A stretch of 64,000 bases of DNA from positions 1,838 through 65,837 of the forward strand of contig JAPLJA010000080.1 in assembly GCA_026388815.1 (NCBI GenBank), given 5' to 3'. Each line of letters begins with the position of its first letter. The first letter of the stretch is position 1. The position numbers and the translations under genes were made by a program. This stretch comes from Pseudomonadota bacterium. GTDB lineage: Bacteria; Desulfobacterota; WTBG01; JAPLJA01. Under the pieces are notes generated by a model, which saw only the letters and a program-made list of their open reading frames with translations, made no database searches and was not told the DNA's origin. Positions 1,798 to 50,967 of this stretch are shown piece after piece.

Positions 1798-2727
1798 ATG
1801 ATAGAACTGCCGACTGGAACTAACCCAGAAATCGAAGCTGAAAGGCTTGTATTGAATGGATGTTACGTTGCGTTTATTGGCGCTGGGATGTCCAATCCAC
1901 CTGGAAAGCAGTGGAGAGAAACCGTCCATGACATTGCGCGCCGATGTAACGTTAAAACCAACAATAAAACTTTATACGACTTAATCGATGAATGCCAAGA
2001 AGCTAATTCTATCGAATATGAGAGGGCATTTCGGGAGCTTGTCCCAAAGCACGTACCCACCTCCAGAACAGCCTTGAACTACCTTCTCCGACTTCCCTTT
2101 AAATCATACGTGACAACAAATTTCGACCCATGGTTACATAACCTGTCAACAAGTACTAACATAGAGCGGGTGCACGCATACCCCGATCTTCCTTTGCACA
2201 AAGGCTTATCAAAAGCAATTTACTATCTGCATGGCTATTATGATTCGGATGACAGCATGTGTGACCCAAAGAGACTTGTGTTTGGTACCAAGACTTTTGA
2301 GCAAGCATATGGCTATGAAAGCCTTTTGCCGGGCTTCTTGCTCAACCTCTTTACCTATGAACACATTTTATTCTTAGGCTTTAATCCATCAGAAAAAAAT
2401 ATTAGCGATCTTCTAAAAAAAGCTAACAGCATTCGGAAATCTTTCATTGACGTTAGAAATCTCAAAAAACCTAAACGGTACATCTTTTTCCCCTTATTCA
2501 ACGTATCTGATAAGGAAAAACAAGCTAAGTGGGATGCTGAAATCGAACAACTTACATCTCTGGAAATCATTCCGATTCTATACGAGGCTGAGGGCGAAGA
2601 TTACATCGGACTCGAAAAAATCCTTTATAATTGGGTGCAACATGGTGAACTCAAGAATAGACCCGCTCCCTTTAAGGCCGGTTTTGATTTATTTCAGCCT
2701 CAAGATAACATAGAGGACCAACAATGA
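1798..2727 (+). CDS. SIR2-like (SIR2_2 family) protein, predicted NAD+-consuming effector
   Basis: Ordered motifs FIGAGMS (Rossmann/NAD), VTTNFDPW (catalytic N/D), YYLHGYY (catalytic H) and LFLGFNPSE. The stop overlaps the next start (ATGA). Confidence 0.75.
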   Translation: MIELPTGTNPEIEAERLVLNGCYVAFIGAGMSNPPGKQWRETVHDIARRCNVKTNNKTLYDLIDECQEANSIEYERAFRELVPKHVPTSRTALNYLLRLPFKSYVTTNFDPWLHNLSTSTNIERVHAYPDLPLHKGLSKAIYYLHGYYDSDDSMCDPKRLVFGTKTFEQAYGYESLLPGFLLNLFTYEHILFLGFNPSEKNISDLLKKANSIRKSFIDVRNLKKPKRYIFFPLFNVSDKEKQAKWDAEIEQLTSLEIIPILYEAEGEDYIGLEKILYNWVQHGELKNRPAPFKAGFDLFQPQDNIEDQQ

Positions 2728-5675
2728 GTCAAATGAAATTTTTCGACCTAATAAATGAAATAGATTTGCTACTCTTGAGAAAGCCTACTGATGAAGATTG
2801 TTTGACACAACTTGTAAAACTCGTCACAGATGATGGGTTACGTCGATATTTCTTTGACCATTTGGAAAACCCAGAGTGGATTGGACCACTTAAATCAAAA
2901 GGTTTCTTCAGCAATCCGCCAAAACCAAATCGAGATGAGGATAGGGGTACAATTGGTTTTCCACCCTGGCCTGAATCTCGCTATCTCGCGAGAATGGCAT
3001 CACTTAGTCCCGAGACCGTGACAGAAGTTCTTCTTCAAATTCCTGATACTGATAATGTCAGTGTTCTTGAAGATCTGGTAGATGCTGCATTAAAAATGCC
3101 CCCAGATATCGTGGCCCGGTTAGTGGAAAAAGCTACAGAATGGGCTAGATCCCCATATCAACTTCTTCTACCACGAAAATTAGGTTCGCTTATCGCTCAC
3201 TTTGCAAAAGGTGGACAAGTTGCGGCATCGTTAGACCTCGCAGGTATACTTCTTGAAGTTTTGCCTGATCCCACACAGAAAGATAAATCTGAAACAGAAG
3301 GAGGCTATCGTCTCCCTCCACAGCCGAGAGCACGATTTGATATATGGGAATATCAAAAGATTCTCGAAAAGGATTTTCCCGAGCTTGTTAAATTGGCAGG
3401 ATTACCTGCATTTCAACTGCTCTGTGATCTTCTTGAAACAACTGTTCGTCTTTCACAAAGACGTACAGACAACAAGGGTCCAGAAGATTATTCTCATATC
3501 TGGCGCCCGGCCATTGAAGAGCATGAACAGAACCAACTCTATAGGCTTGAAGATATGTTGGTTTCTGGTGTCCGTGATACAGCCGTTTTTTTAGCAGAAA
3601 CTAAAAAGACCGAAGTTTCCGAACTCATTAAAATTCTTGAGGGTCGGCCTTGGAAGATTTTCTGGCGTATGGCCCTTCATATCATAAGGCTATTTTCAGA
3701 TGAAGTACCCAATATTGTTGCTTCCAAGCTTACTGATCAGGAATTATTTGACGATTACGTGATGCGCCATGAGTATGCACTTCTTTCAGATAAATGTTTT
3801 GGATCGCTTTCACCAGAGCAACAACAGGTTATTTTAAGTTGGATCAAAAAAGCACCTGATCTCCAGGATTTTATTGAATCCCGTGAACAGATGACTGGTA
3901 AGCGACCAACAGACGAAGATGCAGAAAAATACCGAAAGAGATGGCAACTCAGTCGTCTCTCTTGGTTCAAAAGGCATCTCTCTGGAGAATGGAAACAGTA
4001 CTATGATTCCTTGCTGTCAGAATTAGGAGAACCAGAACACCCCGATTTTTTAAGCTACAGTGGCGCAACATGGGTGGGTCCCGCCAGCCCTAAAAGCACG
4101 GAAGAACTTCAGAATATGTCAGTGACTGATATAGTCGTTTTTCTGCAAAACTGGCAACATTCTGGAGATACGAGGGCACCATCACCCGACGGGCTATCTC
4201 GGGAGTTATCAATCGTTGTAGCCCAAGAGCCCAGAAGGTTTTCAACAGAATCTCCGAGGTTTAGAGGACTCGATCCTACCTATGTACGTGGATTGATCAT
4301 AGGCTTTCGTGATGCCCTCAAGCAAAAGCGTACATTTGAGTGGCAACCTGTGTTTGATTTGTGCCAATGGGCGGTTAAACAGCCCTTAGATATTCAAGGT
4401 CAATCTAATAGAATGCAAGATTCTGACCCTGATTGGGGCTGGACACGCAGATCTATTGTCGATCTTCTTTCATCTGGGTTTGAGGAAGGTGAAGGATGTA
4501 TTCATTTTGATCACCGTGGGATAGTTTGGAGTATTTTAAAACCACTTACTGATGATCCTGACCCGACTCCCGAACATGAAGCGAGCTATGGAGGTTCCAA
4601 TATGGATCCAACTTCGCTTTCTATTAATACCACTCGGGGCGAGGCAATGCACACGGTCATACGATATGCCTTGTGGGTCAGCAGACACTTTGAAAAATTA
4701 CCAGATGGTAAAAAAAGGCTTTCCCGGGGATTCAATGAAATGCCAGAAGTAAGAACCATTTTAGAAAAACATCTCGATATATCACAAGACCCGTCACTTG
4801 CAATTCGTTCGGTTTATGGGCAATGGTTTCCCTGGATCGTTCTGCTTGATATGGATTGGGCGAGAAATCACACTAACCAAATTTTTCCTAGCACCGAATC
4901 TGAGAAAGCGTTTTGCGAGGCCGCATGGGATGCATATATCGTATTTTGTCCTCCGTATGACAACGTGTTTGGTATCCTCAGGAAGCAGTACATCGAAGCG
5001 ATTAAAAAGCTAAAAATAGACGCTGAAGAAAAGAGAGGATTGGCTGATCCTCAGGAGAGACTTGCTGAACATCTTATGGCATATTGCTGGCGTGGAATAA
5101 TCAATTTAAAAGACCCCATTCTCACGGAATTCTGGGAACGAGCATCTGACAAGGTAAGAGGGCATGCAATTGCGTATGTTGGAGAAAATCTTCATAGATG
5201 GAAAAAACCGGTGCCGCCTGAAATCTTAAAAAGGTTGCGGGTTCTCTGGGAAACCCGTGTTGCCATTGCAACATCTGCGCCCAACAACCATAAATCAGAA
5301 ATGGCAGCTTTTGGCTGGTGGTTTGCATCGAAGAAATTTGAGAATAAATGGGCCATTAATCAACTTATTGCTGCGCTTAGGCTTACAGGTAACATTGAAC
5401 CCGATCATCTTGTCGCAGAGTGTTTGGCCTCTATTTCTCAAGAGATGCCCAGGGAAACTCTGCAATGCTTTGAGTTAATGATTAAGGGTGACCAAGAGGG
5501 ATGGAGAATCTATGACTGGCGTGAACATTTGAGGATAGTCCTATCGAATACACTTCAAAGTTCCGATCCAGAAACTGTCTCCGCTGCTGAAGATTTCATC
5601 CATTATCTTGGTAGCAAAGGTTGCTTTGAATTCCGCGATCTCCTCCGGAGTAAAAGAGACTCTGATAATAAATGA
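2724..5675 (+). CDS. 983-aa Trp-rich, apparently all-alpha (ARM/HEAT-like) protein of unknown function
   Basis: Long uninterrupted ORF, 4-bp-coupled to the genes on both sides. I could not recognise a P-loop, nuclease, protease or HEPN motif. Confidence 0.8.
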   Translation: MSQMKFFDLINEIDLLLLRKPTDEDCLTQLVKLVTDDGLRRYFFDHLENPEWIGPLKSKGFFSNPPKPNRDEDRGTIGFPPWPESRYLARMASLSPETVTEVLLQIPDTDNVSVLEDLVDAALKMPPDIVARLVEKATEWARSPYQLLLPRKLGSLIAHFAKGGQVAASLDLAGILLEVLPDPTQKDKSETEGGYRLPPQPRARFDIWEYQKILEKDFPELVKLAGLPAFQLLCDLLETTVRLSQRRTDNKGPEDYSHIWRPAIEEHEQNQLYRLEDMLVSGVRDTAVFLAETKKTEVSELIKILEGRPWKIFWRMALHIIRLFSDEVPNIVASKLTDQELFDDYVMRHEYALLSDKCFGSLSPEQQQVILSWIKKAPDLQDFIESREQMTGKRPTDEDAEKYRKRWQLSRLSWFKRHLSGEWKQYYDSLLSELGEPEHPDFLSYSGATWVGPASPKSTEELQNMSVTDIVVFLQNWQHSGDTRAPSPDGLSRELSIVVAQEPRRFSTESPRFRGLDPTYVRGLIIGFRDALKQKRTFEWQPVFDLCQWAVKQPLDIQGQSNRMQDSDPDWGWTRRSIVDLLSSGFEEGEGCIHFDHRGIVWSILKPLTDDPDPTPEHEASYGGSNMDPTSLSINTTRGEAMHTVIRYALWVSRHFEKLPDGKKRLSRGFNEMPEVRTILEKHLDISQDPSLAIRSVYGQWFPWIVLLDMDWARNHTNQIFPSTESEKAFCEAAWDAYIVFCPPYDNVFGILRKQYIEAIKKLKIDAEEKRGLADPQERLAEHLMAYCWRGIINLKDPILTEFWERASDKVRGHAIAYVGENLHRWKKPVPPEILKRLRVLWETRVAIATSAPNNHKSEMAAFGWWFASKKFENKWAINQLIAALRLTGNIEPDHLVAECLASISQEMPRETLQCFELMIKGDQEGWRIYDWREHLRIVLSNTLQSSDPETVSAAEDFIHYLGSKGCFEFRDLLRSKRDSDNK

Positions 5676-6091
5676 AAAAATCTTCCCGTTACGATACCCC
5701 CACCCTCATTGAAGCCCAATTTGAACCTGGTTCCCGCGGCCGGGTACTGAAAAATTTGTTGGGTATTAAAAGCAAGGCAGAGATGGATCGGGTTGAGGCG
5801 GAAGCATTGAAAAGGACTGTGGATGCGTTCGTTCGGGCTTGTGAAAGATCATATCGGTTTACCGCCTCAGGCATCTGCAAAATACACAAGGTGTGGCTGG
5901 GGGGAATTTATGAGTGGGCCGGTAACTACAGAAAAATTAATCTCAGCAAAGGAAAGTTTACCCTTGCATCCGCTATGCAGATTCCTACCTTAATGGAGGA
6001 ATTTGAGAAAGGGCCGCTGTATAAACAGGGACCAGCATTGGGGGCGGGTTCATATTTCTCATATTTCTGTGTACCAGAATGGGCAGGATAG
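5672..6091 (+). pseudogene. Fic/DOC family protein, N-terminal fragment lacking the HxFx(D/E)GNGR motif
   Basis: CKIHKVWLGGIYEWAGNYRKINLSKGKF parallels the E. coli Fic segment IHRQLYQDIFDWAGQLREVDI. The ORF ends before the catalytic loop. Its ATGA overlaps the upstream stop. Confidence 0.55.
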
Positions 6092-6109: not shown

Positions 6110-7798
6110 ATGACCCGTGAGGAACTCCTCCAACTGATCACTGAAGTCCAGCGCCACCAGAGCGAGCTGGACGATATAGAAGTAAAATCAGCGCACGGCG
6201 GAACACCACAACGGCTGTATGAGTCCCTCTCTGCATTTGCCAACCGTCCAGGCGGCGGGGTAATGCTGTTTGGACTGGAGGAGGATCGGAATTTTGAAAT
6301 CGTTGGCGTCAGCAATGCACATGATCTACAAAAAATTATCAGTGATTTGGCATCATCTGAAATGGAGCCGCCTTTACGCCCTGACTTTACCGTCGAAGAC
6401 ATTGACGGAAACACGGTCGTAGCCGTTGAGATCTCTGAAATTCCTGCAGAGCAAAAACCGTGTTACTACAAACCGAAAGGTCTGCACAAGGGTTCCTACA
6501 TTCGGGTAGGAAACACGAACCGGCAGATGACGGATTATGAAATCTTTGGCTATGTGAGCGCCCGGACACAACCCACATTCGATGAAGAACCGGTGAAGGA
6601 TGTCACCCTTGAAGACCTGAATCGAGAGAAACTCGATGATTATTTAGTGCAGTTAAGACGAACCCGGCCCGATGCATCATATTTAAACCAGTCATTTGAA
6701 CAGGTGCTGTCACAACTGCGAATCACTCAAAAAGTTGAAGGAGTGCTCCGCCCGACACTGGCCGGCTTACTGGTGTTCGGTAACTACCCCCAGGCCTTCG
6801 AACCCCAACTGGTGATAACCTTCTTACAGTACTACGGCACAACTGAGACAGAAAAGACCCCGCGCGGTGAGCGGTTTTTAGACAACCGTAAATTTGAAGG
6901 AACGATTCCGGAAATGGTAGAAAATGCTGCCAGACATGTGCTGGCAAGTATCCGCAAAAGCAGTCTCATTGAAGGGTTATGGCGACGTGACATACCGGAA
7001 TATCCTGAGGAGGCTATACGCGAAGCAGTGGTAAACGCAGTAGCACACCGTGACTACAGCAGCTTTGTGCGCGGGAGTTACATCCAGATTCGTCTGTTTG
7101 CCGATCGGTTAGAAATCCAGAACCCAGGGGGTTTGTATGGAAACGTGACGGAAGAAACACTCGAAGAAGAGCAGTCCACCCGCAACCGTGTCTTGATGCG
7201 ACTTATGGAGGACTTGCACCTTGTTGAAAATCGCGGTAGCGGCATTCAAACAATGCTCTCAGCAATGCGCAAAGCCAACCTGGAGCCACCAAAATTTCAG
7301 GACAAAAGATCATCCTTCTGGGTAACGTTTTACAGCCATACATTGATGAGCCCGGATGCAATTACATGGCTGAACCAGTTTGCCGGCTTCCCACTCAATG
7401 ATACACAGCGACTTGCACTTGTATACCTTCGGCACAATAAAAATATGACAAATAGCGACTTCCAACGTTTGAATCACGTGGATTCAGTGACTGCCAATCG
7501 GGAGTTGCGGGGGCTTGTGCAATTGGGTTTAATTGAACAACACGGCACCAGGCGATGGGCATCTTATACCCTGAGGGTACCTGCTGAAGTGAAAATCCCT
7601 ACACCAGCACCACCTAAGACCGATGAAGAAAAGATTTTAGCCTACGTGCAAGAACATGGGTTCATCACTAATTCTGATTGTCGCAATTCGCTTCGTGTAG
7701 AAATTCAGCGTGCCTCTTATTTACTTAAGAAAATGGTCAGAAATAGTTTATTGGAGCGTGAAGGAAAGGGTCGTTGGGCGCGTTACCGTCTACCATAG
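6110..7798 (+). CDS. AlbA_2 (Schlafen-like) + HATPase_c_4 + C-terminal wHTH protein (COG2865-type)
   Basis: N-terminal ELDDIEVKSAHGG...LSAFANRPGGGVMLFGLEEDRNFEIVGV (AlbA_2). Central REAVVNAVAHRDYS...LEIQNPGGL (HATPase_c_4). Helix-turn-helix-like tail. Confidence 0.75.
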   Translation: MTREELLQLITEVQRHQSELDDIEVKSAHGGTPQRLYESLSAFANRPGGGVMLFGLEEDRNFEIVGVSNAHDLQKIISDLASSEMEPPLRPDFTVEDIDGNTVVAVEISEIPAEQKPCYYKPKGLHKGSYIRVGNTNRQMTDYEIFGYVSARTQPTFDEEPVKDVTLEDLNREKLDDYLVQLRRTRPDASYLNQSFEQVLSQLRITQKVEGVLRPTLAGLLVFGNYPQAFEPQLVITFLQYYGTTETEKTPRGERFLDNRKFEGTIPEMVENAARHVLASIRKSSLIEGLWRRDIPEYPEEAIREAVVNAVAHRDYSSFVRGSYIQIRLFADRLEIQNPGGLYGNVTEETLEEEQSTRNRVLMRLMEDLHLVENRGSGIQTMLSAMRKANLEPPKFQDKRSSFWVTFYSHTLMSPDAITWLNQFAGFPLNDTQRLALVYLRHNKNMTNSDFQRLNHVDSVTANRELRGLVQLGLIEQHGTRRWASYTLRVPAEVKIPTPAPPKTDEEKILAYVQEHGFITNSDCRNSLRVEIQRASYLLKKMVRNSLLEREGKGRWARYRLP

Positions 7799-7886
7799 CA
7801 GTCTATTAGCAGTCTATTAGCAATCAATTTATAATTCTTTCTAATAGAATTTGAAAAAAACAAATTCTTTTATAAAACAAAATGTT

Positions 7887-8492
7887 ATGAATACCTTTAT
7901 CGAAAAGGGTACCTCACTTTATCCCTCAAAACTTCAACATTTTTTGGGCAAACAAACCCCAAGAGTCATCTCAACGCTGGGCAATCTTGATATCCTTCAG
8001 CACAAACTGCTAGCGATTTTCTGTTCAGTGAAGTGTCCCGGTACCCTAATCATACAGACCTATGATTTTGCCCAGAGCTTGAAGGAAAAAGAGATAACAG
8101 TTATCGGGGGATTCCACTCCCCCATTGAACAGGAGTGTTTGAGAATTTTTCTGCGGGGGAACCAGCCTATCATTCTGTGTCCTGCCCGAAGCATCAATGG
8201 AATGAGGATAAGGGCAGAATACAAAAAGCCACTTGAGGAAGGCAGACTATTATTTCTATCACTGTTTACAGATAAGCAGCGCCGCGTCACGGCAGACACA
8301 GCCCTTTTACGGAATTACTTTGTTGCCGCCCTTGCCGATTCTGTGTTCATTGCCTACGCCGCACCCCATAGCAAAACTGAATGGTTCTGTCAGGAGATTG
8401 TCACATGGGGGAAATCACTTTATGCTTTTACAAATGAATGCAATGCTAATCTCATTAAATTGGGTGCACAATCACTTAATAGTCGTTTATGA
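7887..8492 (+). CDS. DprA/Smf-like (SLOG Rossmann) domain protein
   Basis: ISTLGNLDILQHKLLAIFCSVKCPG...ITVIGGFHSPIEQECLRIFL...ILCPARSI resembles the DprA Rossmann core. Start taken as ATG 7887 rather than the track's TTG 7851. Confidence 0.5.
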   Translation: MNTFIEKGTSLYPSKLQHFLGKQTPRVISTLGNLDILQHKLLAIFCSVKCPGTLIIQTYDFAQSLKEKEITVIGGFHSPIEQECLRIFLRGNQPIILCPARSINGMRIRAEYKKPLEEGRLLFLSLFTDKQRRVTADTALLRNYFVAALADSVFIAYAAPHSKTEWFCQEIVTWGKSLYAFTNECNANLIKLGAQSLNSRL

Positions 8493-8541: not shown

Positions 8542-9267
8542 ATGGTCGCAAACGAGAACGAAATATTAAAATACTGCTACTGGCTGGATGATCAATCCCT
8601 GGCCATGCTCAAGAAGCAGATGGAAGGGAAGGGCGTTGAAATGGGCAGGGCTGAAAAGAATCCCTGTGAGGCCTTGAAGATTAATGTTGCCCATGCAGAG
8701 CCTCACACCTGGGATGTCATCTGCAAACACGATGCAGCACCCTGGTACCATGCCTCTGAACATGGAGGAAAAAATCTTGTAGCCTCGTCCTTTCCCTTGG
8801 AACAGGAATATGAACAGTTCCTTGAAACCACCATTGAACTTTCTCCATTTAAGCCTGAAAGGCTTCCTTCAGAGGAAGATCTGAAACAACTGGCATTAGA
8901 CGAGACATATCTTTCGAGGCAGCCGGAAGACTGGGGAAAATTCCCTGCAGAGATGGGAGAGGCTATTGTGGAGGGCTTAAGCAAAATGATTGGAAAGCCC
9001 TTTGGAAAGTTCGAGGACCTCCTGCGCACTTGGACTGCCGTCCATGCCAATTTTGTGAATCCACGCTACCGGGCGGGCCAGGAATGTATGGAAGCGCCCT
9101 ACTCTGTGGCTGACACGACCCGTATCAGCAGTTGCTGTGTGGAGATTTTTAATCTTGTTGATACAAAAGAAAAGGCTATGCTGGTGAGGCCCTGCATAGG
9201 TGCTGTCATTGTAAATGTCCTGAAGAGGGATCAGTATTATCTGGTTCGTGTAGTGAGCAAGAGGTAG
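8542..9267 (+). CDS. Hypothetical protein, 241 aa
   Basis: Clean ORF with AGAGAGG upstream of the ATG. No motif recognised. Confidence 0.55.
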   Translation: MVANENEILKYCYWLDDQSLAMLKKQMEGKGVEMGRAEKNPCEALKINVAHAEPHTWDVICKHDAAPWYHASEHGGKNLVASSFPLEQEYEQFLETTIELSPFKPERLPSEEDLKQLALDETYLSRQPEDWGKFPAEMGEAIVEGLSKMIGKPFGKFEDLLRTWTAVHANFVNPRYRAGQECMEAPYSVADTTRISSCCVEIFNLVDTKEKAMLVRPCIGAVIVNVLKRDQYYLVRVVSKR

Positions 9268-42580: not shown

Positions 42581-43690
42581 TCAGAAGATGATTTTAAGTT
42601 TCTCCTCTGAAAAAAGCCTGTCCTCAGGTTTGAGGTCATTCAGGTCAGCAATTTCCCTCCACCGTTTTGGGTCTCCCAGGATTTTTTCAGCCACTGACTT
42701 AACGGTATCGCCTTCCTGTGCAGTGTAGATCTTTATATGCTGGAGTTGCTCTTTTGGACCGTATGCTATCCCATCTATATGGGTCAGGTATTCATCAGCA
42801 AAGATCCCCTCCTTCTGATACCTTGACCTCCCCTCTGGATGCTCGGCGATGTCATCTTTTGCCTTGTCCATGGCGAGGGTGACTTTTGCCCGGGCCGCAG
42901 TCCTCCCCATCCTGTCAAAGATATCCGGATGAGTCATGTTATACTGCTGATAGCCAAGGGGTGTCTGACCCTTCTTGGAGAGCCTTGCCTGGAAAACGGT
43001 CATCTGCAGGGGATCATATCCAGCCTTGAACATATAATCCACGCCCTGGGCATCTGCCAAGAACTCCTTTTCCCTCCCATACCCCAGCATGATAGAGTTA
43101 AAGAGCATGTTTGTGGCCTGCATCATCTCCCGGCCGGTGGGACCGGCAGCAATACTGCCCAGGGTAAGAAGCTGGAGCGCCAATCCTTCAGAGATGAGAT
43201 TGGCGCTGTCTCTGCCTACCACATGGCCGATTTCATGTCCCAGCACCCCTGCCAGCTCCGATTCGCTATCCAAAAGGGCGAGCAATCCCCTGGTGATGTA
43301 GATATATCCGCCGGGAACGGCAAAGGCATTCTCAATCGGCGAGTCAAGGATCTTGAAATGGTACTGGATATTCCGCCGGGCACAGACCTGGACCAGTTTT
43401 TGACCGATCTCATTCACATAGGCCTGGAGCCCCGGATCATTATAGTAGCCAAGTTCCTTGACGATCTCAGGGTCAACCTTCCTTCCGATACTCAGTTCTT
43501 TGTCTTCACTGATGACCATAAAGTCCTGCTTCAAGGTGACAGGGTTGACCGCTGTGACCGCTGAGCAGCCAGAGAGGAACAGCAGGAGCACGATTGTGAA
43601 AATAAAGAATTCAGGAGTCAGGAGACAGAATTCAGTAGATTTTTTATGCTGACTTCTGACTTCTGAATTCTGGATTCTTTTGCCTCTCAC
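42581..43690 (-). CDS. M48-family zinc metalloprotease lipoprotein with C-terminal LysM domain
   Basis: HEIGHVV zinc site, lipobox LLFLSGC, and C-terminal YTAQEGDTVKSVAEKILGD..W..IADLN (LysM). The GTG start overlaps the hemW stop (GTGA). Codons about 5-28 are formed by repeat family E copy 4. Confidence 0.75.
   Translation of the reverse strand: MRGKRIQNSEVRSQHKKSTEFCLLTPEFFIFTIVLLLFLSGCSAVTAVNPVTLKQDFMVISEDKELSIGRKVDPEIVKELGYYNDPGLQAYVNEIGQKLVQVCARRNIQYHFKILDSPIENAFAVPGGYIYITRGLLALLDSESELAGVLGHEIGHVVGRDSANLISEGLALQLLTLGSIAAGPTGREMMQATNMLFNSIMLGYGREKEFLADAQGVDYMFKAGYDPLQMTVFQARLSKKGQTPLGYQQYNMTHPDIFDRMGRTAARAKVTLAMDKAKDDIAEHPEGRSRYQKEGIFADEYLTHIDGIAYGPKEQLQHIKIYTAQEGDTVKSVAEKILGDPKRWREIADLNDLKPEDRLFSEEKLKIIF
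43607..43677. repeat. Hairpin repeat family E, copy 4 (inside the 5' end of the M48 ORF)
   Basis: AGAATTCAGGAGTCAGGAGACAGAATTCAGTAGATTTTTTATGCTGACTTCTGACTTCTGAATTCTGGATTC. Confidence 0.65.
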
Positions 43691-44799
43691 GTCATCAACC
43701 TCACAAACACCTCATTGGAGAGGAGAAGACCCCGGGGTGTGAGTGTAACGCGCCCCATTTCTTCTCGTACAAGGCCCTCTAAAGAAGGGAAATGTGTATC
43801 GAGCGGTAATCCAAATCTCTCTTCAAACCTCTTCACGTCTATCCCTTCGCTCTGTCTTAATCCAAGAAAGATCGCTTCCTCTATCGCTTCTTCTTTTTTC
43901 AGCGATTCCTCAAACTCTGTCTTTTCAGCGCGTTCCATGTAGAGCAAGGGGTCGCTGATGTTCGCCTGCCTCAGGCCCCAGCCCTTCCGCAGGAAAGAAT
44001 GGGCACCCGCGCCAATGCCGAGATACTCTTTCCCTTCCCAGTATCTCTGGTTGTGACGGGAACGATAACCAGGACGGGCATAGTTTGAAATCTCGTAGTG
44101 CTCATAGCCGGCTTCGGTAAGTTTTTTCCGGGTTGTCTCCAGCATCTCTGTCTGGATTTCCTCCGGAGGTAAGGCAAGTTCTCCCCGCTCCATGCTCTGG
44201 TAGAACGGCGTGCCCTGCTCCACGTGAAGCTGATAGGCAGAGATGTGTTCGGGATTAAGGGCTATGACCTTATCCAGATCATCTTCCCAGTTGGCAAGGG
44301 TTTGAAAGGGGATTCCGGAGATCAGGTCAATCCCGACATTCTCAAAACCCGTCTCTCTTCCCTTCTCAAAGGCTGAGACTGCTTCTTTCGCAGAATGAAT
44401 CCTTCCCAGGGTCTTGAGACAATCATCCCTAAAAGATTGAATGCCCAGGCTCAGGCGGTTTATGCCGAGGGAATGAAGGGCAGAAAGTTTTTCATGGTTG
44501 ACGCTACAGGGATTGGCTTCAATGGTGATCTCAGCTTCTTTAGCTACCGTAAAGTTCCTGATAGTTTCATTGAGGATGGCACCAATGGTTTGAGGAGAAA
44601 AGAGGGAAGGAGTTCCCCCTCCCAGATAGACGGTTTCAATCGTATGTTCCCTGAATTCTTCAGACCGGTCTCTGATTTCATCTAAGAGAGCTTTAACGTA
44701 TTTCTCCTCAGGAAATGGCTTTACTGCAAGAGAGTTAAAATCACAGTAAGGACATTTACGGAGACAGAAGGGTATATGAATATAAATTCCAAGATCCAT
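43687..44799 (-). CDS. hemW: Radical SAM haem chaperone HemW (coproporphyrinogen-III-oxidase-like)
   Basis: LGIYIHIPFCLRKCPYCDFNS and ..YLGGGTPS. Confidence 0.85.
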   Translation of the reverse strand: MDLGIYIHIPFCLRKCPYCDFNSLAVKPFPEEKYVKALLDEIRDRSEEFREHTIETVYLGGGTPSLFSPQTIGAILNETIRNFTVAKEAEITIEANPCSVNHEKLSALHSLGINRLSLGIQSFRDDCLKTLGRIHSAKEAVSAFEKGRETGFENVGIDLISGIPFQTLANWEDDLDKVIALNPEHISAYQLHVEQGTPFYQSMERGELALPPEEIQTEMLETTRKKLTEAGYEHYEISNYARPGYRSRHNQRYWEGKEYLGIGAGAHSFLRKGWGLRQANISDPLLYMERAEKTEFEESLKKEEAIEEAIFLGLRQSEGIDVKRFEERFGLPLDTHFPSLEGLVREEMGRVTLTPRGLLLSNEVFVRLMT

Positions 44800-44907
44800 G
44801 AAGGTTAGCGCTCGTCATAGGAGGAGGAAGAAAATGAATATTCATTCATTATGTTATTCTTTTAACATATCAGGGGGGTTTTAGCAAGGCGCATAAAGAG
44901 TTGCTCT

Positions 44908-44936
44908 TTGACACTCAATGACCAATATGGTAAATT
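44908..44936 (+). promoter_or_regulatory. Putative sigma70-type promoter of the DUF104-PIN toxin-antitoxin operon
   Basis: TTGACA (44908-44913), 17-nt spacer, TAAATT (44931-44936), about 55 nt upstream of the ATG at 44990. Confidence 0.4.
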
Positions 44937-44989
44937 TAGATTAGTTCAAAGCCTTAAAAATGTATGAATCGAAAGGAGGTGACAAGGGG

Positions 44990-45229
44990 ATGTCTAAAGT
45001 GATCGATGCTGTCTTTGAGAATGGGGTCTTTAGACCTGTGAAGAAGATACGCCTTAAGGAAAGAAAAAAAGTTCAGATACAGATACTTTCTGATGATGAC
45101 TGGCAGAAAAGGTTTGAGAGAGCACTCAAATCTATCCGCAGCAAAACCGCCGGCTTCCCGCCAGAAGAAATCGAGGCAGATATAAGAGAAGCAATAAAAG
45201 AGGTTCGCGAAAGGAAGCGTGCACGTTAA
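44990..45229 (+). CDS. DUF104-type antitoxin
   Basis: MSKVIDAVFENGVFRPV.. is the signature N-terminus of the DUF104/AF2212-like antitoxin family. AAAGGAGG lies upstream. Confidence 0.6.
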   Translation: MSKVIDAVFENGVFRPVKKIRLKERKKVQIQILSDDDWQKRFERALKSIRSKTAGFPPEEIEADIREAIKEVRERKRAR

Positions 45230-45662
45230 GGTTGTTATTGATACCAATATCTGGATTTCTGCTTTGGTTTCTCCGGGTGGCTTGGCTGCCGAACTTGTCG
45301 AGCAATGGAGGAAAGGCAGCTTCACGCTTATCGCCTGTGAACAACAAATTACCGAATTGTGTGACGTTCTATCCCGGTCAAAGTTTTCATACAAATATCA
45401 CATAAGCAATAAACAGGTGGAAGATATAGTTGCCCCGATCATTGAAAAAGCAGAGCGTGTAACCATAAGAGGGAACATCACATGTTGTCGGGATTTGGAC
45501 GATAATATGCTTATTGAAGCCGCCGTCCGTGGAAAAGCCAAATATCTGATCACCGGAGATAAGGATATCAGAGATGATAAAGAAGTTTCGTCTTTTTTAG
45601 CACGGAATGGCGTAATTGTTATTTCCGTCGCCAAGTTCTTAGACCTCATACGCAAGGCCTAA
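45219..45662 (+). CDS. PIN-domain toxin
   Basis: VVIDTNIWISAL.. (first catalytic Asp) and ..DLDDNMLIEAAVRGKAKYLITGDKD. GTG start overlaps the antitoxin by 11 nt. Confidence 0.7.
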   Translation: MHVKVVIDTNIWISALVSPGGLAAELVEQWRKGSFTLIACEQQITELCDVLSRSKFSYKYHISNKQVEDIVAPIIEKAERVTIRGNITCCRDLDDNMLIEAAVRGKAKYLITGDKDIRDDKEVSSFLARNGVIVISVAKFLDLIRKA

Positions 45663-45704
45663 TCTGAAATCTCCAAATAACAATTTTTAGATATTGAAAA
45701 CAAA

Positions 45705-45775
45705 AAAGGGGCGAAGCGCCGCCTCGCCCCTACATAAAACCGCAGTAAAACGTTTGGTCGTTCCTACGATAGGTT
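45705..45775. repeat. REP hairpin plus 'CCCCTACATAAAAC..ACGTTTGGTCGTTCCTACGATA' unit
   Basis: GGGGCGAAGCGCCGCCTCGCCCCTACATAAAACCGCAGTAAAACGTTTGGTCGTTCCTACGATAGG. Same words as at 27663-27717 and 34259. Confidence 0.6.
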
Positions 45776-45868
45776 TTTCTTTCCGCACTCCGCACTTTTT
45801 TCCTTACCGCTCACTGTTCCATACCCATCACTCTCATCTTTTTGCCCGTTACTCTTAATTCTTCATTT

Positions 45869-45955
45869 TTAATTCTTAATTGTTTCTTTCGGCACCAGAC
45901 TTACCGGCCCGTGCATGGTGCTGTTGTCGTAGATGTCGATGTCCTCACGGAAAAT
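45869..45955 (-). pseudogene. Orphan 3'-terminal fragment of a paralogue of the 1351-aa DGR target gene
   Basis: My translation gives ..IFREDIDIYDNSTMHGPVSLVPKETIKN*. Compare the large protein's C-terminus YKLEDIDLNGTSTLHGPVSAAPRV. Confidence 0.5.
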
Positions 45956-45972
45956 AGAACCCCATGAACGAT

Positions 45973-46383
45973 TCAACTCTCGATTAAGAATCCCTCTCTC
46001 GCAAGATATTCTTTTGGCTTTATTATTTCGATTCCTTCGTATATATGCAAATTTAGTAAATGTCTGTCTCCTGAAATAATGTAGTCTGCCTTACCGTCGA
46101 TAGCGCACTCAAGAAAAATATTATCGGTTGGATCTACCGTAATTAACGAAATCTTGCTCTTGGTTTCTAACAGCTCAGCACAGTTTCTTAAGTTTGTTAC
46201 AAATGGGATGACCTCTTGAGGTGAGAGTCCAAATTTTGAATAACCCAATACGCGCATAAACTCTCTTTCCATTTCTTTGCTGAGAAGCATAGTCAGCTTC
46301 CCATCACGTATCAGATTATAAACCCTTCGTGGATAGCCATCCCGGAAAAATGCAGCAATCGTAACATTCGTATCCAGGACAAT
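45973..46383 (-). CDS. PIN-domain toxin; the conserved N-terminus has no canonical start codon
   Basis: The track ORF starts at Met 46290, but the same frame is open upstream and encodes KRIVLDTNVTIAAFF.. (the PIN catalytic Asp box). Only ATT, ATC or CTG are available as starts. C-terminal ..DNIFLECAIDGKADYIISGDRHLL. Confidence 0.55.
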   Translation of the reverse strand: MVLDTNVTIAAFFRDGYPRRVYNLIRDGKLTMLLSKEMEREFMRVLGYSKFGLSPQEVIPFVTNLRNCAELLETKSKISLITVDPTDNIFLECAIDGKADYIISGDRHLLNLHIYEGIEIIKPKEYLAREGFLIES

Positions 46384-46388
46384 CCTTT

Positions 46389-46622
46389 TTAATGAATACC
46401 CCGTGATTCATGGATTATCTTTTCAATATCCTCCTCAGTCAGTTTATTGAACCCTTTTCCCTCTGCAAGGGATTCTGCATAGCTGTATATCTCCGATTCT
46501 TCGACTGGTATCAACATCACATCAAAAACCTTTCCGACTTCTTTTGCCGCATCATCTGGCAATGAAAGATGCCCATCTGGCAAAACCCGACCTATGAATC
46601 TGCGTGTTATTGTTGTTTTCAT
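46389..46622 (-). CDS. Putative antitoxin (small, AbrB/SpoVT-like N-terminus)
   Basis: 77 aa, immediately upstream of the PIN gene. GRVLPDGHLSLPDDAAKEVGKVFDVMLIP resembles a swapped-hairpin DNA-binding fold. Confidence 0.4.
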   Translation of the reverse strand: MKTTITRRFIGRVLPDGHLSLPDDAAKEVGKVFDVMLIPVEESEIYSYAESLAEGKGFNKLTEEDIEKIIHESRGIH

Positions 46623-46775
46623 GGGAAATCACCCCTTCCTTTCAGTGCTGTATTTTTCTACCCCAAAATATCTATTCTTTCTATAACTGAAAATGGTCGG
46701 TCTCCTGTTATACCTGCCTTGTTCCTTGTCTTCTGTTTTTAGCTAAAACCTCTTTGCTTTTTACTCTTCACCCAT

Positions 46776-46908
46776 CATTCCACATTCCACATTCCAAAAT
46801 CCGCATTCTCCTAACCCCCAATCCCTAATCCCTAATCCCGAGCCTTTTCGGCATCGCACTCACCAGCCCGCATATTCGTGAATGGTGAATGGTAAATCGT
46901 CAATGGTC
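46776..46908. repeat. Three short heptamer tandem arrays: (CATTCCA)x3, (AATCCCT)x2.8, (GTGAATG-like)x4
   Basis: Arrays at 46776-46796, 46820-46839 and 46878-46908. The first and last are imperfect reverse complements of each other. They lie directly 3' of the large target gene. Confidence 0.6.
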
Positions 46909-46909
46909 A

Positions 46910-49900
46910 TTACCTCAAACTGTGAAATACACGTGGAGCAGCTGATACCGGGCCATGTAATGTTGAAGTACCATTGAGGTCGATGTCTTCAAGTTTGTAG
47001 TAATAGGTCTTACGGTTCTGAACATTCTCATCAACAAACTGATATGTCGCTCCCTGCGTGGCAGATCCCTGGGCTGGAATCAATGAGGAATTGATCTTTA
47101 CGTATTCACCATTTTCTGATTCAGCGCGGTAGAGGTTAAAACCTGCATTGTCGATTTCAGAGGCGGTAGTCCATTTGAGAATGATTGCTCGGTCAGAGGG
47201 GGTGGTGGTGAAGGAGGAAAGGGTGATTAACGTCGGTTCACACGCATCACCTATCCCATCGCCATCTGAATCCTGTTGACCGGGGTTAGAAATGTTGGGG
47301 CAGTTGTCAACTATATCTGCTATCCCATCGCCATCGGAATCCATTAAGGCAATAAAATCCATACCGGTTACATCTGCATCAATAACATCAATTGTCTGGC
47401 TCAGCGGATCAAAGGCATAACCGGAAAGGGATGGTGTAATGGTGTATGAACCGTTGAACACTCCGGGGAAAATGTAATTCCCGGCAGAATCGGTTGTGGT
47501 GGTCATTGAGAAGGTACCGGATAGAGCCAGGGTAATACCTTCCAGTACATCCCCCGTTACCGTGCCAGATAGTGAGTAGGTAGGAACAGAATCAGGATCA
47601 AGAGGGTCAGAGCCTCTCTGAATCTCAATATAATCGCTGTAACTGTCTTCGTCGGTATCGTTCAGTAATGGGCTCGTCCCTCGAATATACTCTTCACCGT
47701 CGTTGAGACCATCACTATCTGTATCCGGGTTGCTCAAGTCAGTCCCTAAAGATGTTTCCTGGACATCAGTGAGCCCGTCATGATCACGGTCGTCGTTGGT
47801 TGCAAAGTTAGAGAGGAAGCTTTCTGTCCCGTCTGACATCACTGCTGAAACAGCATATACCCTGGTTGTAACTGATGAATTTTCTACCCAAGGGTGGTTG
47901 GTATAAAAGGAACTGACGGTTGAGGTTCCCAGTTGGGAGGGGTATGGCTCATCTATTTGTTTTGAGTAGATTATGTATCCTGTTGCCTCAGGATATGCGC
48001 TTGCATCCCAGGTGAGCTTTGTTATTAGGCCGCCTGAATCCAGGGGATCTGCCTGAAGTCCAGTGGGGGGAGAGGGTACATTTACCGTAATCCTGTCATC
48101 CGATGTTGAGTCTACGGTGAAAGAAATGTTGGTAGTAGTAGCGTGGTTAAAGCCCCAGTATTCCCTGTTCACAGCCTTTTCTGAGTCAGAATAGCTCAAG
48201 GCCAAGCGATAATCTTCTTGATAGGCGTCTTTAAGATAGAGGGTGTACAGACCATCAGCCGTATTTTTGATGCTTATTGTTCCACCGTCCTTATCTATTG
48301 AGATTATACTATCGGGGATTTCATCTTCCCGTATATCAGTTGCTGGATTAATGCCACTTTTTCTACCGAGAGGATCTATGAGGTAGGGCTGGACCCGTCC
48401 TCGCACCGAGATTGTCATCCTAGGCGTGTCAGGAGCACCGCCAGACAAGAGATAATTACTCGAACCTGTCATAAGCGGAGAAGATGCTGGTGTTTTACCT
48501 GTAATAAACTCTACAATCTCATTACTGTATGTAGTGATTAATTCGCTGTGCTTACCCTCCTTCTCATCAACAGAGTCCATCCCTGAGATGATGGCGCTGT
48601 TTTTAAGGACAGTCCCATCACCTTCCCCTGTTTTTGTTGGATCACCTTTTGGTACGCCATCCTTATATAGGTTATTTGGCTTCCCAACATCAATTACCTC
48701 AATAGTATTTTTATTTATCCCTGCAAATATTTTAACTTCCTTGACTGAGAGGGCAAGATTCCTATTCAATGTAATGAGACTCTTATTGTAACTTTCAAGG
48801 TCACCAATGCTTAATAATGGCGTGCATTCTGAACCGAGCGGAGAGAAAAAGCATTGCCTTAAAAACGGATAGGTTGGCAAAAGCTCTCTTACCGATTTTA
48901 CGTGTTCATGCACGAAATCTCTTATCAGAATATTATTTGGTTTTATAACTACGGCGGGGGTGCTCTGGGCATGTGTTTCAAAGTTTGAAAACGCCCTTTT
49001 ATTCATTTCCTTATAGATATTCTCCAAAACATTCGTATATAAATTAATGAAAAAATCACTCAATCCATCATTCAAGTTGTCAGCCAGTTTTGGGTCCCCG
49101 CCTTCCCAGATGTAGTAGGCATTGGCAGCCCCCTGGTTTGGTGTGCCCACCATGGCAAACCTGTCAATGTCTTTCTGGTAGTCACTGCTCTGAATGTAGG
49201 ATCTCACCACAAGCCCGCCCATGCTGTGGGCAATGATGTGTACCTTGTCAGTACCAGCGATATCTTGGGCTCTGTCAATCCATCGCTTGAGGTAATTTTT
49301 AGCACAATCGTCTATTTCTAATCTCCAGTCATAGGGCACAGGGAAAATGTTGCACCCAACCTCATAATTGGGGTCTACGGATTTAATCTTTTCCGCCAGC
49401 AGTTTCCAGCCTGGCTTGCTGTCAGGTTGGCCGGAGTTATAGTCAAACAATCCGTTAAATACTTTATCTCCAGATTTTCTCCATCTTATGTCATACCATG
49501 GAGGTGAATCGGCAGGCAGAGTGGGATAGTTTTGGTCTGCTGTGGTGGAACCCATAATACCCGGTACAAGCAATATAGGGGTTAAGCCTGTAGGATTACA
49601 TGCGCTTCCCAGTATAACCAAATCCTGGCCGACACACTGATTGCTTGGGAGACATAGTGGAAATGTTTCGCTTACTCTGCTCTCTTTTACTGCCCAGAGA
49701 GAATAGTATCCGGATGAAACAGGTGGAAACTGGTAGTTGCCATTGCTGTTTGTGGTTGTCGAAAGTTGATTGGTCCCCCCATCATCCAACCATACGGTGG
49801 CACCTTCTATTCTATTTCCGCTGCCATCTCTCACGGTTCCGCCCAGAGAGGAAAGATTTGAAATTCCTCCTGTTATGCTAAAGGAGTTACTCTCCCCTGA

Positions 49901-50965
49901 TTTACCACCACCATTTGTTCTGATGTTTATACTGTTTCCGGGACTATCGAGCTTTACAGAAAGCGTAGCAGTGCCATTAGTAAAGTAAGCTTTCATCGGG
50001 CTTACCATACCGATTGTGGCACTCAAAATAGCTTCCCCGTTAAATTGTGTTGCTGTATCGCCATTCCTATCCTTTGCATTAATGGTGATCACAAAGGGTA
50101 CGTTAACAGTCTGGGGGGATGTGATGGAAGAAAAAGAAAAATGATCAAGCAAACCATAGGCCGTAAAATCCTGCCCAGTTACATTGCTTCCTGAGATGTT
50201 TACAATTCTTGATGGAGGATTAAAGGTATATCCCGTTAGACTGGGCGTTATAGTGTATGTGCCGTCGGCAAGGTCAGTGAAAGAGTACGTTCCATCAGAG
50301 ACCGTTGTAGTGGTTTTTGAGACCGTTCCAGACAAGGTCACAGTGACACCGGCCAGGCCGGAGCCGTTGTAGGTAACGCTGCCGGAAATAACCAAATTAC
50401 CAAATGACCCAGACTGTCCCGCGCGAACAGGCCAGACGTAGTAGTAGTAGCCGGACTTATTGCTGTTGTGCACGTAGCCAAAACACATACTGACGATCCA
50501 CGCGTAGCCCGGGTTGCTGGCGTAGCTCGTAGAAGACCAGTAATAGCCGGCCTGCACATTGGTAAAGGGATGCCCGGCGGGTAAGGCTGGCGAGTATTGT
50601 GAAAAGTCAGTCAGGCTGTGTATTTCCTTCAGGTTGGGAAGACGCCAGTCATGATAGCCGTAATTGGGATAGGTTCCGGCATTCATCCCTGCCACATAAT
50701 TCAGCGCTTGCTGCCAGTTCATGTATCCATTAGGAAGATTTGCATTCTTTGTCCACATCAGGCCGGTGAGATTATCGGTTGCCGTGCCATTTCCATGATC
50801 GGCAAACCGTGGCACAGGCCAGGCAACACCTCTTTCCAGGTCGCCGTCATCGCCGCTGTAATAACTCGCTTTCTGCCCTGTTTCCCATATCGGCGCCGGT
50901 TGGCAAAATGCCGCGCTCGCCAAAGCCGTAACCAAAATCACAACAAAACATATTATCTTTTTCAT
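46910..50965 (-). CDS. 1351-aa secreted multidomain protein (DGR target 2): N-terminal DUF1566 domain carrying VR2, beta-sandwich/Ig-like domains, alpha/beta-hydrolase (lipase-like), thrombospondin-type-3-like Ca-binding repeats, FN3-like C-terminus
   Basis: Start at internal MKKIICFVVILVTALASAAF (ATG 50965, GGAGGG upstream, 2 nt after the RT stop). GxSxG nucleophile elbow in HIIAHSMGGLVV (Ser codon 49223-49225). DTDSDGLNDGEE and DSDGDGIADIVDNCPNISNPGQQDSDGDGIGDAC repeats. Confidence 0.85.
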   Translation of the reverse strand: MKKIICFVVILVTALASAAFCQPAPIWETGQKASYYSGDDGDLERGVAWPVPRFADHGNGTATDNLTGLMWTKNANLPNGYMNWQQALNYVAGMNAGTYPNYGYHDWRLPNLKEIHSLTDFSQYSPALPAGHPFTNVQAGYYWSSTSYASNPGYAWIVSMCFGYVHNSNKSGYYYYVWPVRAGQSGSFGNLVISGSVTYNGSGLAGVTVTLSGTVSKTTTTVSDGTYSFTDLADGTYTITPSLTGYTFNPPSRIVNISGSNVTGQDFTAYGLLDHFSFSSITSPQTVNVPFVITINAKDRNGDTATQFNGEAILSATIGMVSPMKAYFTNGTATLSVKLDSPGNSINIRTNGGGKSGESNSFSITGGISNLSSLGGTVRDGSGNRIEGATVWLDDGGTNQLSTTTNSNGNYQFPPVSSGYYSLWAVKESRVSETFPLCLPSNQCVGQDLVILGSACNPTGLTPILLVPGIMGSTTADQNYPTLPADSPPWYDIRWRKSGDKVFNGLFDYNSGQPDSKPGWKLLAEKIKSVDPNYEVGCNIFPVPYDWRLEIDDCAKNYLKRWIDRAQDIAGTDKVHIIAHSMGGLVVRSYIQSSDYQKDIDRFAMVGTPNQGAANAYYIWEGGDPKLADNLNDGLSDFFINLYTNVLENIYKEMNKRAFSNFETHAQSTPAVVIKPNNILIRDFVHEHVKSVRELLPTYPFLRQCFFSPLGSECTPLLSIGDLESYNKSLITLNRNLALSVKEVKIFAGINKNTIEVIDVGKPNNLYKDGVPKGDPTKTGEGDGTVLKNSAIISGMDSVDEKEGKHSELITTYSNEIVEFITGKTPASSPLMTGSSNYLLSGGAPDTPRMTISVRGRVQPYLIDPLGRKSGINPATDIREDEIPDSIISIDKDGGTISIKNTADGLYTLYLKDAYQEDYRLALSYSDSEKAVNREYWGFNHATTTNISFTVDSTSDDRITVNVPSPPTGLQADPLDSGGLITKLTWDASAYPEATGYIIYSKQIDEPYPSQLGTSTVSSFYTNHPWVENSSVTTRVYAVSAVMSDGTESFLSNFATNDDRDHDGLTDVQETSLGTDLSNPDTDSDGLNDGEEYIRGTSPLLNDTDEDSYSDYIEIQRGSDPLDPDSVPTYSLSGTVTGDVLEGITLALSGTFSMTTTTDSAGNYIFPGVFNGSYTITPSLSGYAFDPLSQTIDVIDADVTGMDFIALMDSDGDGIADIVDNCPNISNPGQQDSDGDGIGDACEPTLITLSSFTTTPSDRAIILKWTTASEIDNAGFNLYRAESENGEYVKINSSLIPAQGSATQGATYQFVDENVQNRKTYYYKLEDIDLNGTSTLHGPVSAAPRVFHSLR
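50417..50562 (-). other. DGR variable region VR2
   Basis: Hand alignment to the TR over 146 nt gives 19 differences at TR adenines and 1 non-adenine difference. The 3' end GTTCGCGCGGGA is identical to the TR. Confidence 0.85.
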
Positions 50966-50967
50966 CG

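Follow-up and report, generated by a model that had tools for sequence, protein, structure and literature searches.

A SIR2 gene translationally coupled to a gene for a helical sensor protein as a probable two-gene version of the anti-phage protein DSR1

Introduction

The stretch of DNA analysed here (hereafter the window) comprises 64,000 nucleotides (nt) of contig JAPLJA010000080.1 (positions 1,838 to 65,837 of the forward strand; GenBank assembly GCA_026388815.1, Pseudomonadota bacterium, assigned to the Desulfobacterota by GTDB) and carries two overlapping genes which probably represent a two-gene version of the single-chain anti-phage protein DSR1, consisting of a SIR2 enzyme and a separate helical sensor. 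The effector gene (1798..2727, + strand) encodes a stand-alone SIR2_2 protein of 309 amino acids (aa), which is matched by the Pfam SIR2_2 family with E=1.1e-12, while the sensor gene (2724..5675, + strand) encodes a 983-aa protein, predicted to be an all-alpha solenoid and homologous to the sensor at the C-terminus of Dsr1 (Dsr1/Avs7-type). DSR1 (defence-associated sirtuin 1) reportedly goes back to work by Gao et al. in 2020 and Garb et al. in 2022. A preliminary description of the window, made from the letters alone, had already placed both open reading frames (ORFs) at these positions with these lengths and had proposed a two-polypeptide, DSR-like system with a SIR2 effector and a helical sensor of about 1000 aa. 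The genes are confirmed, and the proposed system is supported by profile matches, collinear profile-profile alignments and conserved synteny.

Homology and collinearity with Dsr1

In a scan with the hidden Markov model (HMM) library of PADLOC, from which all PADLOC results given here originate, the Dsr1 model PDLC04166 matched the sensor with E=1.2e-53, aligning residues 205-797 of the protein with positions 504-1049 of the 1227-position profile (545 profile positions), and the second Dsr1 model, PDLC04167, matched it with E=7e-11. The SIR2 protein is matched by the Dsr1 models on their N-terminal 120-290 positions. The NCBIfam Dsr1 equivalog NF041818 likewise matches both halves in the correct order, albeit partially, with 32.1 bits for the SIR2 protein and 31.6 bits for the sensor (sensor E=3.6e-8). 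With about 32 bits per half compared to a curated cutoff of 1400 bits, and with the single-chain architecture absent, the pair is not an ordinary DSR1 member, and Dsr1 models built for a single gene rate it too low in their current form (32 of 1400 bits). Annotation pipelines therefore probably miss such pairs or call them 'SIR2 family protein' and 'hypothetical protein'.

Searching plasmids by tblastn retrieved distant relatives of the sensor with 20-27 % identity, annotated as 'SIR2 family protein' in Bacillus and as 'ATP-binding protein/AAA ATPase' in haloarchaea. The fused Dsr1 of Bacillus thuringiensis pBMB267 (1,320 aa) carries an N-terminal SIR2_2 domain and reaches 470 bits on PDLC04166, and in a haloarchaeal protein of 1,510 aa it is the C-terminal ~850 aa that match the PADLOC model, in its Dsr1 sensor region. 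By hhalign, the SIR2 family of the window aligns with residues 13-311 of the fused B. thuringiensis protein (probability 97.5 %, E=6.6e-12) and the sensor family with residues 346-1129+ (probability 97.1 %). Because both proteins are thus collinear with the fused 1,320-aa Dsr1, the gene boundary of the pair falls into the SIR2-sensor linker of Dsr1. The kinship of the 983-aa protein with the C-terminal region of DSR1, which the preliminary description had suspected, is hence found at the level of the PDLC04166 match as well as of profile-profile alignment.

Overall, the pair resembles DSR1 in having a SIR2_2 effector with catalytic Asn/His followed by a helical sensor of ~900 aa, both halves being homologous and collinear, and also in its defence-island context. 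In contrast, DSR1 is a single chain of 1227-1320 aa, whereas here two polypeptides are encoded by overlapping genes. Furthermore, the two halves have diverged strongly from it (about 20 % identity to fused plasmid Dsr1), and in the proteins most closely related to the window's sensor a HEPN-like module takes the place of the SIR2 domain. The SIR2-paired clade probably acquired its SIR2 through effector exchange.

The SIR2 effector

The four SIR2_2 motifs named in the preliminary description (FIGAGMS, VTTNFD, YYLHG and LFLGFNPSE) are located at residues 26, 105, 142 and 191 of the 309-aa protein, and in an alignment of 23 SIR2 relatives GAGxS, TTN108FDP and H145G are invariant or nearly so, with N108 and H145 themselves invariant, which agrees with the earlier view of a complete motif set and an apparently intact catalytic site. 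The predicted catalytic residues are Asn108 (codon 2119-2121, + strand) and His145 (codon 2230-2232, + strand); judged by sequence, this Asn/His pair is intact and NADase activity is predicted. The C-terminal tail of the SIR2 protein, RPAPFKxGFD, is conserved as well. The SIR2 regions of the PADLOC models for ThsA, Dsr1 and LmuA match the protein with E-values of 1e-9 to 1e-11, the ThsA models covering the SIR2 part alone (profile positions 20-240 of 478). The closest solved or modelled relatives are the defence NADases KomC, ThsA, Dsr1 and LmuA, and each of the 52 SIR2 relatives is a protein of its own, 240-337 aa long.

The sensor protein

As the preliminary description had stated, the 983-aa protein is rich in tryptophan (3.26 %) and devoid of a P-loop: neither a Walker A motif was found in it nor, in a Pfam scan, any domain, DUF4020 included. 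AlphaFold2, applied to a 27-sequence alignment, predicts an all-helical solenoid with a mean pLDDT (predicted local distance difference test) of 85.5 and a pTM (predicted template modelling score) of 0.54. In a Foldseek comparison of this model with the PDB, only HEAT/ARM proteins were retrieved, namely generic solenoids of the karyopherin/CAND1 kind at TM (template modelling) scores of 0.2-0.3, in line with the ARM/HEAT-type helical repeats that had been read from the sequence. The PDB fold search returned no Dsr1 or Avs7 structure, DSR2 structures were absent from its top 50 matches, and a PDB sequence search gave nothing at E<=1. Since these fold and sequence searches are uninformative, the assignment as sensor rests on sequence profiles. 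Within the sensor family, all 91 invariant columns are retained in the window's protein, so that the sensor gene, like the SIR2 gene, looks intact.

Conservation of the split

At the junction of the two genes, the SIR2 stop and the sensor start overlap in an ATGA (caaca-ATGA-gtc, 2724..2727, + strand), a signature of translational coupling, and a GAGGA Shine-Dalgarno sequence for the sensor gene (2713..2717, + strand) lies 6 nt ahead of the sensor ATG, still inside the SIR2 gene at its 3' end, both being read from the sequence. A second ATGA (aataa-ATGA-aaa, 5672..5675, + strand) joins the sensor gene to a 139-aa ORF (5672-6091), so that overlaps are present at both junctions for which they had been claimed.

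The conservation of this arrangement was surveyed from both sides. From the SIR2 side, 37 metagenome loci were obtained in a scan which used a 14-sequence SIR2 alignment, as the alignment of 23 sequences was too divergent. Twenty-four of them are informative, i.e., they hold a SIR2 of this clade together with enough downstream DNA, and in 23 of these 24 a sensor gene follows directly downstream. The lone exception (L105, positions 3-668) is a 3'-truncated SIR2 remnant with no sensor downstream. Among 27 SIR2/sensor junctions, 4-nt overlaps predominate (16), besides 1-nt overlaps (2) and gaps of 2-33 nt (9), and across 22 SIR2-sensor loci the conserved gene content consists of SIR2 and sensor only. 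Because the same genes recur with a tight junction in about 30 independent loci, their pairing goes beyond chance. Synteny of the 983-aa homologues with SIR2 genes, on which the earlier proposal depended, is thus seen from the SIR2 side. From the sensor side, however, SIR2 is a minority partner: of 80 genome loci, 6 have a SIR2 of the clade as the immediately preceding gene in the same orientation. These 80 loci represent many bacterial phyla and two archaeal lineages, and the six SIR2 pairs stem from several phyla. An exhaustive profile search for the sensor family yielded 8,050 representatives (50 % identity) at E<=1e-3 and 4,046 at E<=1e-30. More than 560 close relatives of the sensor share 47-61 % identity with it; they are either ~950-990 aa or ~1,110-1,180 aa long, and none of them contains a SIR2 domain.

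The pair could also be imagined as a broken single-chain Dsr1, in which a frameshift, a nonsense mutation or an assembly error has split a gene for ~1,290 aa and left a pseudogene or an artefact. In this case the summed length of 309+983 aa, which is about that of Dsr1 (1227-1320 aa), and the collinearity of the halves would find a ready explanation, and decay is indeed seen nearby in the hsdS and Fic remnants of the island as well as in decayed copies of the pair elsewhere (L105, L110/L111). Yet a fused relative is absent both from the 52 SIR2 homologues and from the list of the 270 closest homologues of the sensor, and the split form is found in about 30 loci whose SIR2 identities range from 60 % down to 27 %. 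Moreover, the junctions vary (ATGA, TAATG, gaps of up to 33 nt), each sensor gene has its own start codon, and a Shine-Dalgarno sequence precedes the sensor ATG. On the conservation of the split, the frameshift or pseudogene explanation is hardly credible and was rejected; the pair is therefore a conserved two-gene operon. The SIR2-split form accordingly constitutes a distinct, conserved and translationally coupled two-gene clade.

Two kinds of deviating loci were noted in the course of the survey. L110:1870-2770 and L111:4941-5842 hold decayed copies, where two ORFs together make up a disrupted SIR2 gene and the sensor gene behind them appears to be intact. In L091:5927-10687 and L092:2255-7015, the ORF of the SIR2-paired sensor continues for at least 620 aa past the core of ~970 aa and runs off the contig end.

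The wider sensor family and its effector modules

In the 80 genome loci, the sensor is most often partnered by a helical module of ~170-250 aa (module X), which makes up 50 of 70 partner modules. It is either fused to the N-terminus of the sensor (the class of 1,110-1,180 aa) or a separate protein whose gene lies upstream and overlaps the start of the sensor gene, and it displays the invariant motif AHxxRE plus a later His. No Pfam or PADLOC family matches module X above threshold; sub-threshold matches to PF18165 (predicted pPIWI-associated nuclease) were obtained in three members, besides a weak match to Aga_Nuclease. For an AlphaFold2 model of module X (pLDDT 83.7), HEPN toxins are the top-probability structural neighbours at E-values that are not significant, so that a HEPN-like fold is no more than suggested. 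Module X probably corresponds to the 'HEPN-like RNase' class of a January 2026 preprint (PMC12803255). Examples are found in L007:5325-6017, L010:5247-6017, L032:5334-6071, L001:5518-6000 and about 45 other loci.

Other N-terminal modules on the sensor are AAA_35, DUF4062 and a thioredoxin-DsbH/YyaL-like region, so that the sensor is combined with diverse effectors: SIR2, module X in fused or split form, AAA_35, DUF4062 and thioredoxin-DsbH-like. Sensor-family members include MDA2933697.1 and MBX6764609.1. In Actinomycetota (L043:3976-6000, L056:449-2410, L041, L059 and P0307), the sensor is fused to an N-terminal region of 330-660 aa which contains a thioredoxin-DsbH (DUF255/YyaL-like) domain, an uncommon companion of a defence sensor. 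Another locus, L031:4126-8973, encodes a 1,615-aa protein composed of an AAA_35 ATPase domain, module X and the sensor, which may be an intermediate between architectures of the STAND type (signal transduction ATPases with numerous domains; Avs7-like) and non-STAND ones. When the sensors are arranged in a neighbour-joining tree, the SIR2-paired, X-fused and X-split ones do not form separate groups but are interleaved, the tree being star-like, without support values and only indicative. This interleaving suggests that effector exchange as well as gene fission or fusion have recurred in the sensor family.

A common element of these architectures is an amphipathic helix with the motif FFxxLxxIDxxI. 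Every SIR2-paired sensor carries it N-terminally, and in the window it corresponds to sensor residues 3-18 (..KFFDLINEIDLLLL; codons at 2730..2777, + strand), which AlphaFold2 models as helix H3-18 and for which a role in docking the effector is presumed (adaptor helix). The same motif occurs in the linker of the fused B. thuringiensis Dsr1 (RFIDDVMKCDDAV), and in the X-split relatives the helix is located at the C-terminus of the effector protein. Since it thus belongs to the sensor in one case and to the effector in the other, the SIR2-type and X-type splits lie on opposite sides of the adaptor helix, which suggests that fission recurs on either side of it. The HEPN-like-effector proteins with a Dsr1/Avs7 sensor, of which a Streptomyces protein is marked in Fig. 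2a of the same preprint (PMC12803255), are the closest to the window's sensor (47-61 % identity) and have the adaptor helix in common with it, their module being fused or encoded on the overlapping upstream gene. They differ in carrying module X with AHxxRE...H and not SIR2, and in being split after the adaptor helix, whereas the window's pair is split before it.

A tentative idea, which we consider somewhat less probable than its converse, is that the adaptor helix may serve as a universal plug by which one solenoid that senses phage proteins activates, in trans, effectors as unlike each other as a SIR2 NADase and a HEPN-like RNase, among others, the chain having been cut repeatedly on either side of the helix and the effectors swapped. 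If so, split pairs would be working two-component receptors, Dsr1-type activation would not need a continuous polypeptide, and a ready-made chassis for re-wiring sensors and effectors would be at hand.

Proposed mechanism

For related systems, infection-triggered depletion of nicotinamide adenine dinucleotide (NAD+) by DSR1 and DSR2 is described by Garb et al. (10.1101/2021.12.14.472415). According to PMC12803255, the major capsid protein (HK97-fold) triggers Dsr1 of E. coli and Avs7 of Salmonella, the Dsr1 sensor is homologous to the tetratricopeptide repeat (TPR) sensor of Avs7 and is found with NADase, nuclease and kinase effectors, and defence by systems with the Dsr1/Avs7 sensor is abolished by effector mutations. 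By analogy, the SIR2 enzyme and the sensor of the window would be produced in near-equimolar amounts and would associate non-covalently, with the adaptor helix at the N-terminus of the sensor as the probable contact. In the uninfected cell, SIR2 would be kept inactive. During infection, the bilobed solenoid would clamp a phage structural protein, possibly the capsid protein, and a conformational or oligomeric change would then switch on the NADase activity of SIR2, whereby NAD+ would be depleted and phage replication blocked. The sensor family is modular, its other effectors being mostly the small helical HEPN-like module, and SIR2 is one among several outputs that can be exchanged.

Alternatively, the two proteins might follow a logic resembling that of toxin-antitoxin systems, with the sensor acting as a stoichiometric inhibitor of a constitutively active SIR2, which is freed upon phage infection through binding of a protein or through shut-off or degradation of the sensor, in place of the allosteric activation of a stable complex. 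The split would permit such a physical release, which is impossible in fused Dsr1; the tight translational coupling also resembles that of toxin-antitoxin operons, and the family has undergone repeated fission, now before and now after the adaptor helix. However, the gene order is effector first and larger partner second, and fused EcDsr1 and Avs7 are, according to PMC12803255, activated by trigger binding within one chain or oligomer. Above all, close relatives include fused and split forms in interleaved order, as if one mechanism served with or without a continuous chain, and because of this interleaving the inhibitor-release mechanism is disfavoured and considered unlikely.

Several observations weigh against the pair being a two-gene DSR1 that operates in the way outlined above. 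With only 20-25 % identity between the sensor and fused Dsr1 proteins, its trigger may not be the capsid protein, and for this clade it is by analogy that we infer NADase activity, complex formation and trigger alike. As the SIR2 models of ThsA, LmuA and Dsr1 score equally, an origin from a Dsr1 SIR2 in particular does not follow from the sequence. Regarding the predicted sensor structure, no solved structure resembles the model beyond a generic solenoid, and the arrangement of its lobes is uncertain at a pTM of 0.54. The thioredoxin/YyaL-like fusions of some family members are not typical defence effectors. Finally, the surrounding island is partly decayed and expression of the pair in this organism is not assured; in a promoter scan of the locus, sites were no more numerous than in shuffled sequence.

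Comparison with other defence systems

Among other known systems, the STAND NTPase Avs7 has a homologous sensor domain, as stated in PMC12803255, and the window's sensor is matched by haloarchaeal proteins of ~1,500 aa that are annotated as 'ATP-binding'. In contrast to Avs7 and STAND proteins, the window pair contains no NTPase or nucleotide-oligomerization domain (NOD) module, no Walker A motif and no match to an ATPase family, and its effector is encoded on a separate gene. DSR2 is similar, according to the literature on it, in combining a SIR2 NADase with a large alpha-solenoid which binds the phage tail tube, leading to NAD+ depletion, but it is a single chain, and neither protein of the window is matched by PADLOC DSR2 models. 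A precedent is offered by the short prokaryotic Argonaute (pAgo) systems SPARSA and SPARTA (SIR2- or TIR-APAZ + pAgo), in which the NADase is either fused to the sensor or a separate, co-translated operon partner, as summarised in PMC10952713. Their sensor, however, is a nucleic-acid-guided Argonaute and unrelated, and the PADLOC HMM scan gave no APAZ or pAgo match in the window pair. Thoeris differs in that ThsA consists of SIR2 plus SLOG/STALD and acts with the TIR protein ThsB, whereas only the SIR2 part is matched by the window pair; Pfam and PADLOC scans revealed no TIR gene in the neighbourhood.

The preliminary description had not recognised the architecture as a named system. Unnamed it is, but it is not conceptually new, as effector swapping and split forms figure in PMC12803255, where split proteins are mentioned in the methods. 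After that preprint the pair is therefore not conceptually surprising; it is useful for annotating genomes and for approaching the activation of Dsr1 by experiment. Within one large sensor clade, which is phylogenetically broad and comprises bacteria and archaea, the two-gene form accounts for about 15 %. Moreover, Dsr1 is among the less understood NAD+-depleting defence proteins, its trigger having first been reported in the 2026 preprint. The natural split lets effector and sensor be purified, mutated and titrated separately, which renders the off-state of SIR2, its activation in trans and the signal-transmitting surface testable; these are hard to address in a chain of 1,300 aa.

Genomic neighbourhood

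With a guanine-plus-cytosine (GC) content of 0.429, the SIR2 and sensor genes form the lowest-GC 3.9-kb stretch of the window (mean 0.494, standard deviation 0.027). The preliminary description was thus right about the low GC content of the block, but the flanks amount to about 0.50-0.60 and not to the 55-70 % it had given. Of the neighbours it had classed as defence-type, the hsdS-like remnant, the Fic fragment and the AlbA_2/HATPase_c_4 protein are all present. The first is the 3' remnant of an hsdS-like (type I specificity) gene (1626-1785, + strand, ending in ...VLSKTFRGEL and a stop), which terminates 12 nt before the SIR2 start. Downstream, the 139-aa ORF (5672-6091, + strand) is a Fic remnant, whose match to the profiles PDC-S04 (PADLOC) and Fic (Pfam) is confined to their first half, and the Fic motif HxFx(D/E)GN was found in no frame up to position 6500. 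The second ATGA overlap does exist as described, but Fic is not part of the system: the fragment was rejected as a third component, as Fic is not conserved beside the pair in other loci.

It is followed by a 562-aa protein with AlbA_2 (Schlafen-like), HATPase_c_4 and a winged helix-turn-helix of the MarR type (6110-7798, + strand), which is matched by the PADLOC pAgo and pAgo-associated models with 85 and 66 bits. Further downstream lie genes for a DprA/SLOG-like protein of 213 aa (7851-8492, + strand; PADLOC PsyrA, 63 bits) and for a 241-aa protein (8542-9267, + strand) that has no match in Pfam, PADLOC or NCBIfam; together they may form another small defence or toxin-antitoxin-like pair.

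At other loci, the SIR2-sensor pair is likewise accompanied by defence genes: a type I restriction endonuclease and AbiU in L054, an AbiLi/AriA-like ATPase in L015, and genes of type IIG restriction-modification (RM) systems in L082 and L099. At L111:3727-4941, an intact type I S-subunit gene (PADLOC Specificity_I, 264 bits) lies directly upstream of SIR2, and a homologue of it is found in L081:2-391. The pair thus seems to travel behind hsdS in several genomes. A scan of viral contigs revealed no relatives of the pair.

The latter result would also suit a role outside immunity, in which SIR2 is a protein deacylase or ADP-ribosyltransferase working with a helical scaffold in housekeeping or regulation. 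Deacylases do exist among SIR2-family enzymes, and the thioredoxin/YyaL-like fusions of some sensor-family members could be read in the same way. Nevertheless, the enzyme is of the SIR2_2 type (PF13289) with defence NADases as nearest relatives, and the sensor has a homologue whose role as a phage sensor was validated by experiment. Together with the patchy distribution over bacterial and archaeal phyla, the RM and Abi neighbours and the atypical GC content, this makes a non-immune function very improbable compared to the two-gene DSR1 proposed here.

A second low-GC patch (~0.435) at 43500-51200 of the window contains an M48 peptidase gene and a radical-SAM HemN-like gene and is not defence-related. 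The same applies to the 1,428-aa protein encoded beside it (46910-51196, - strand), which combines Lcl_C, CarboxypepD_reg, SdrD_B and LCAT-like domains.

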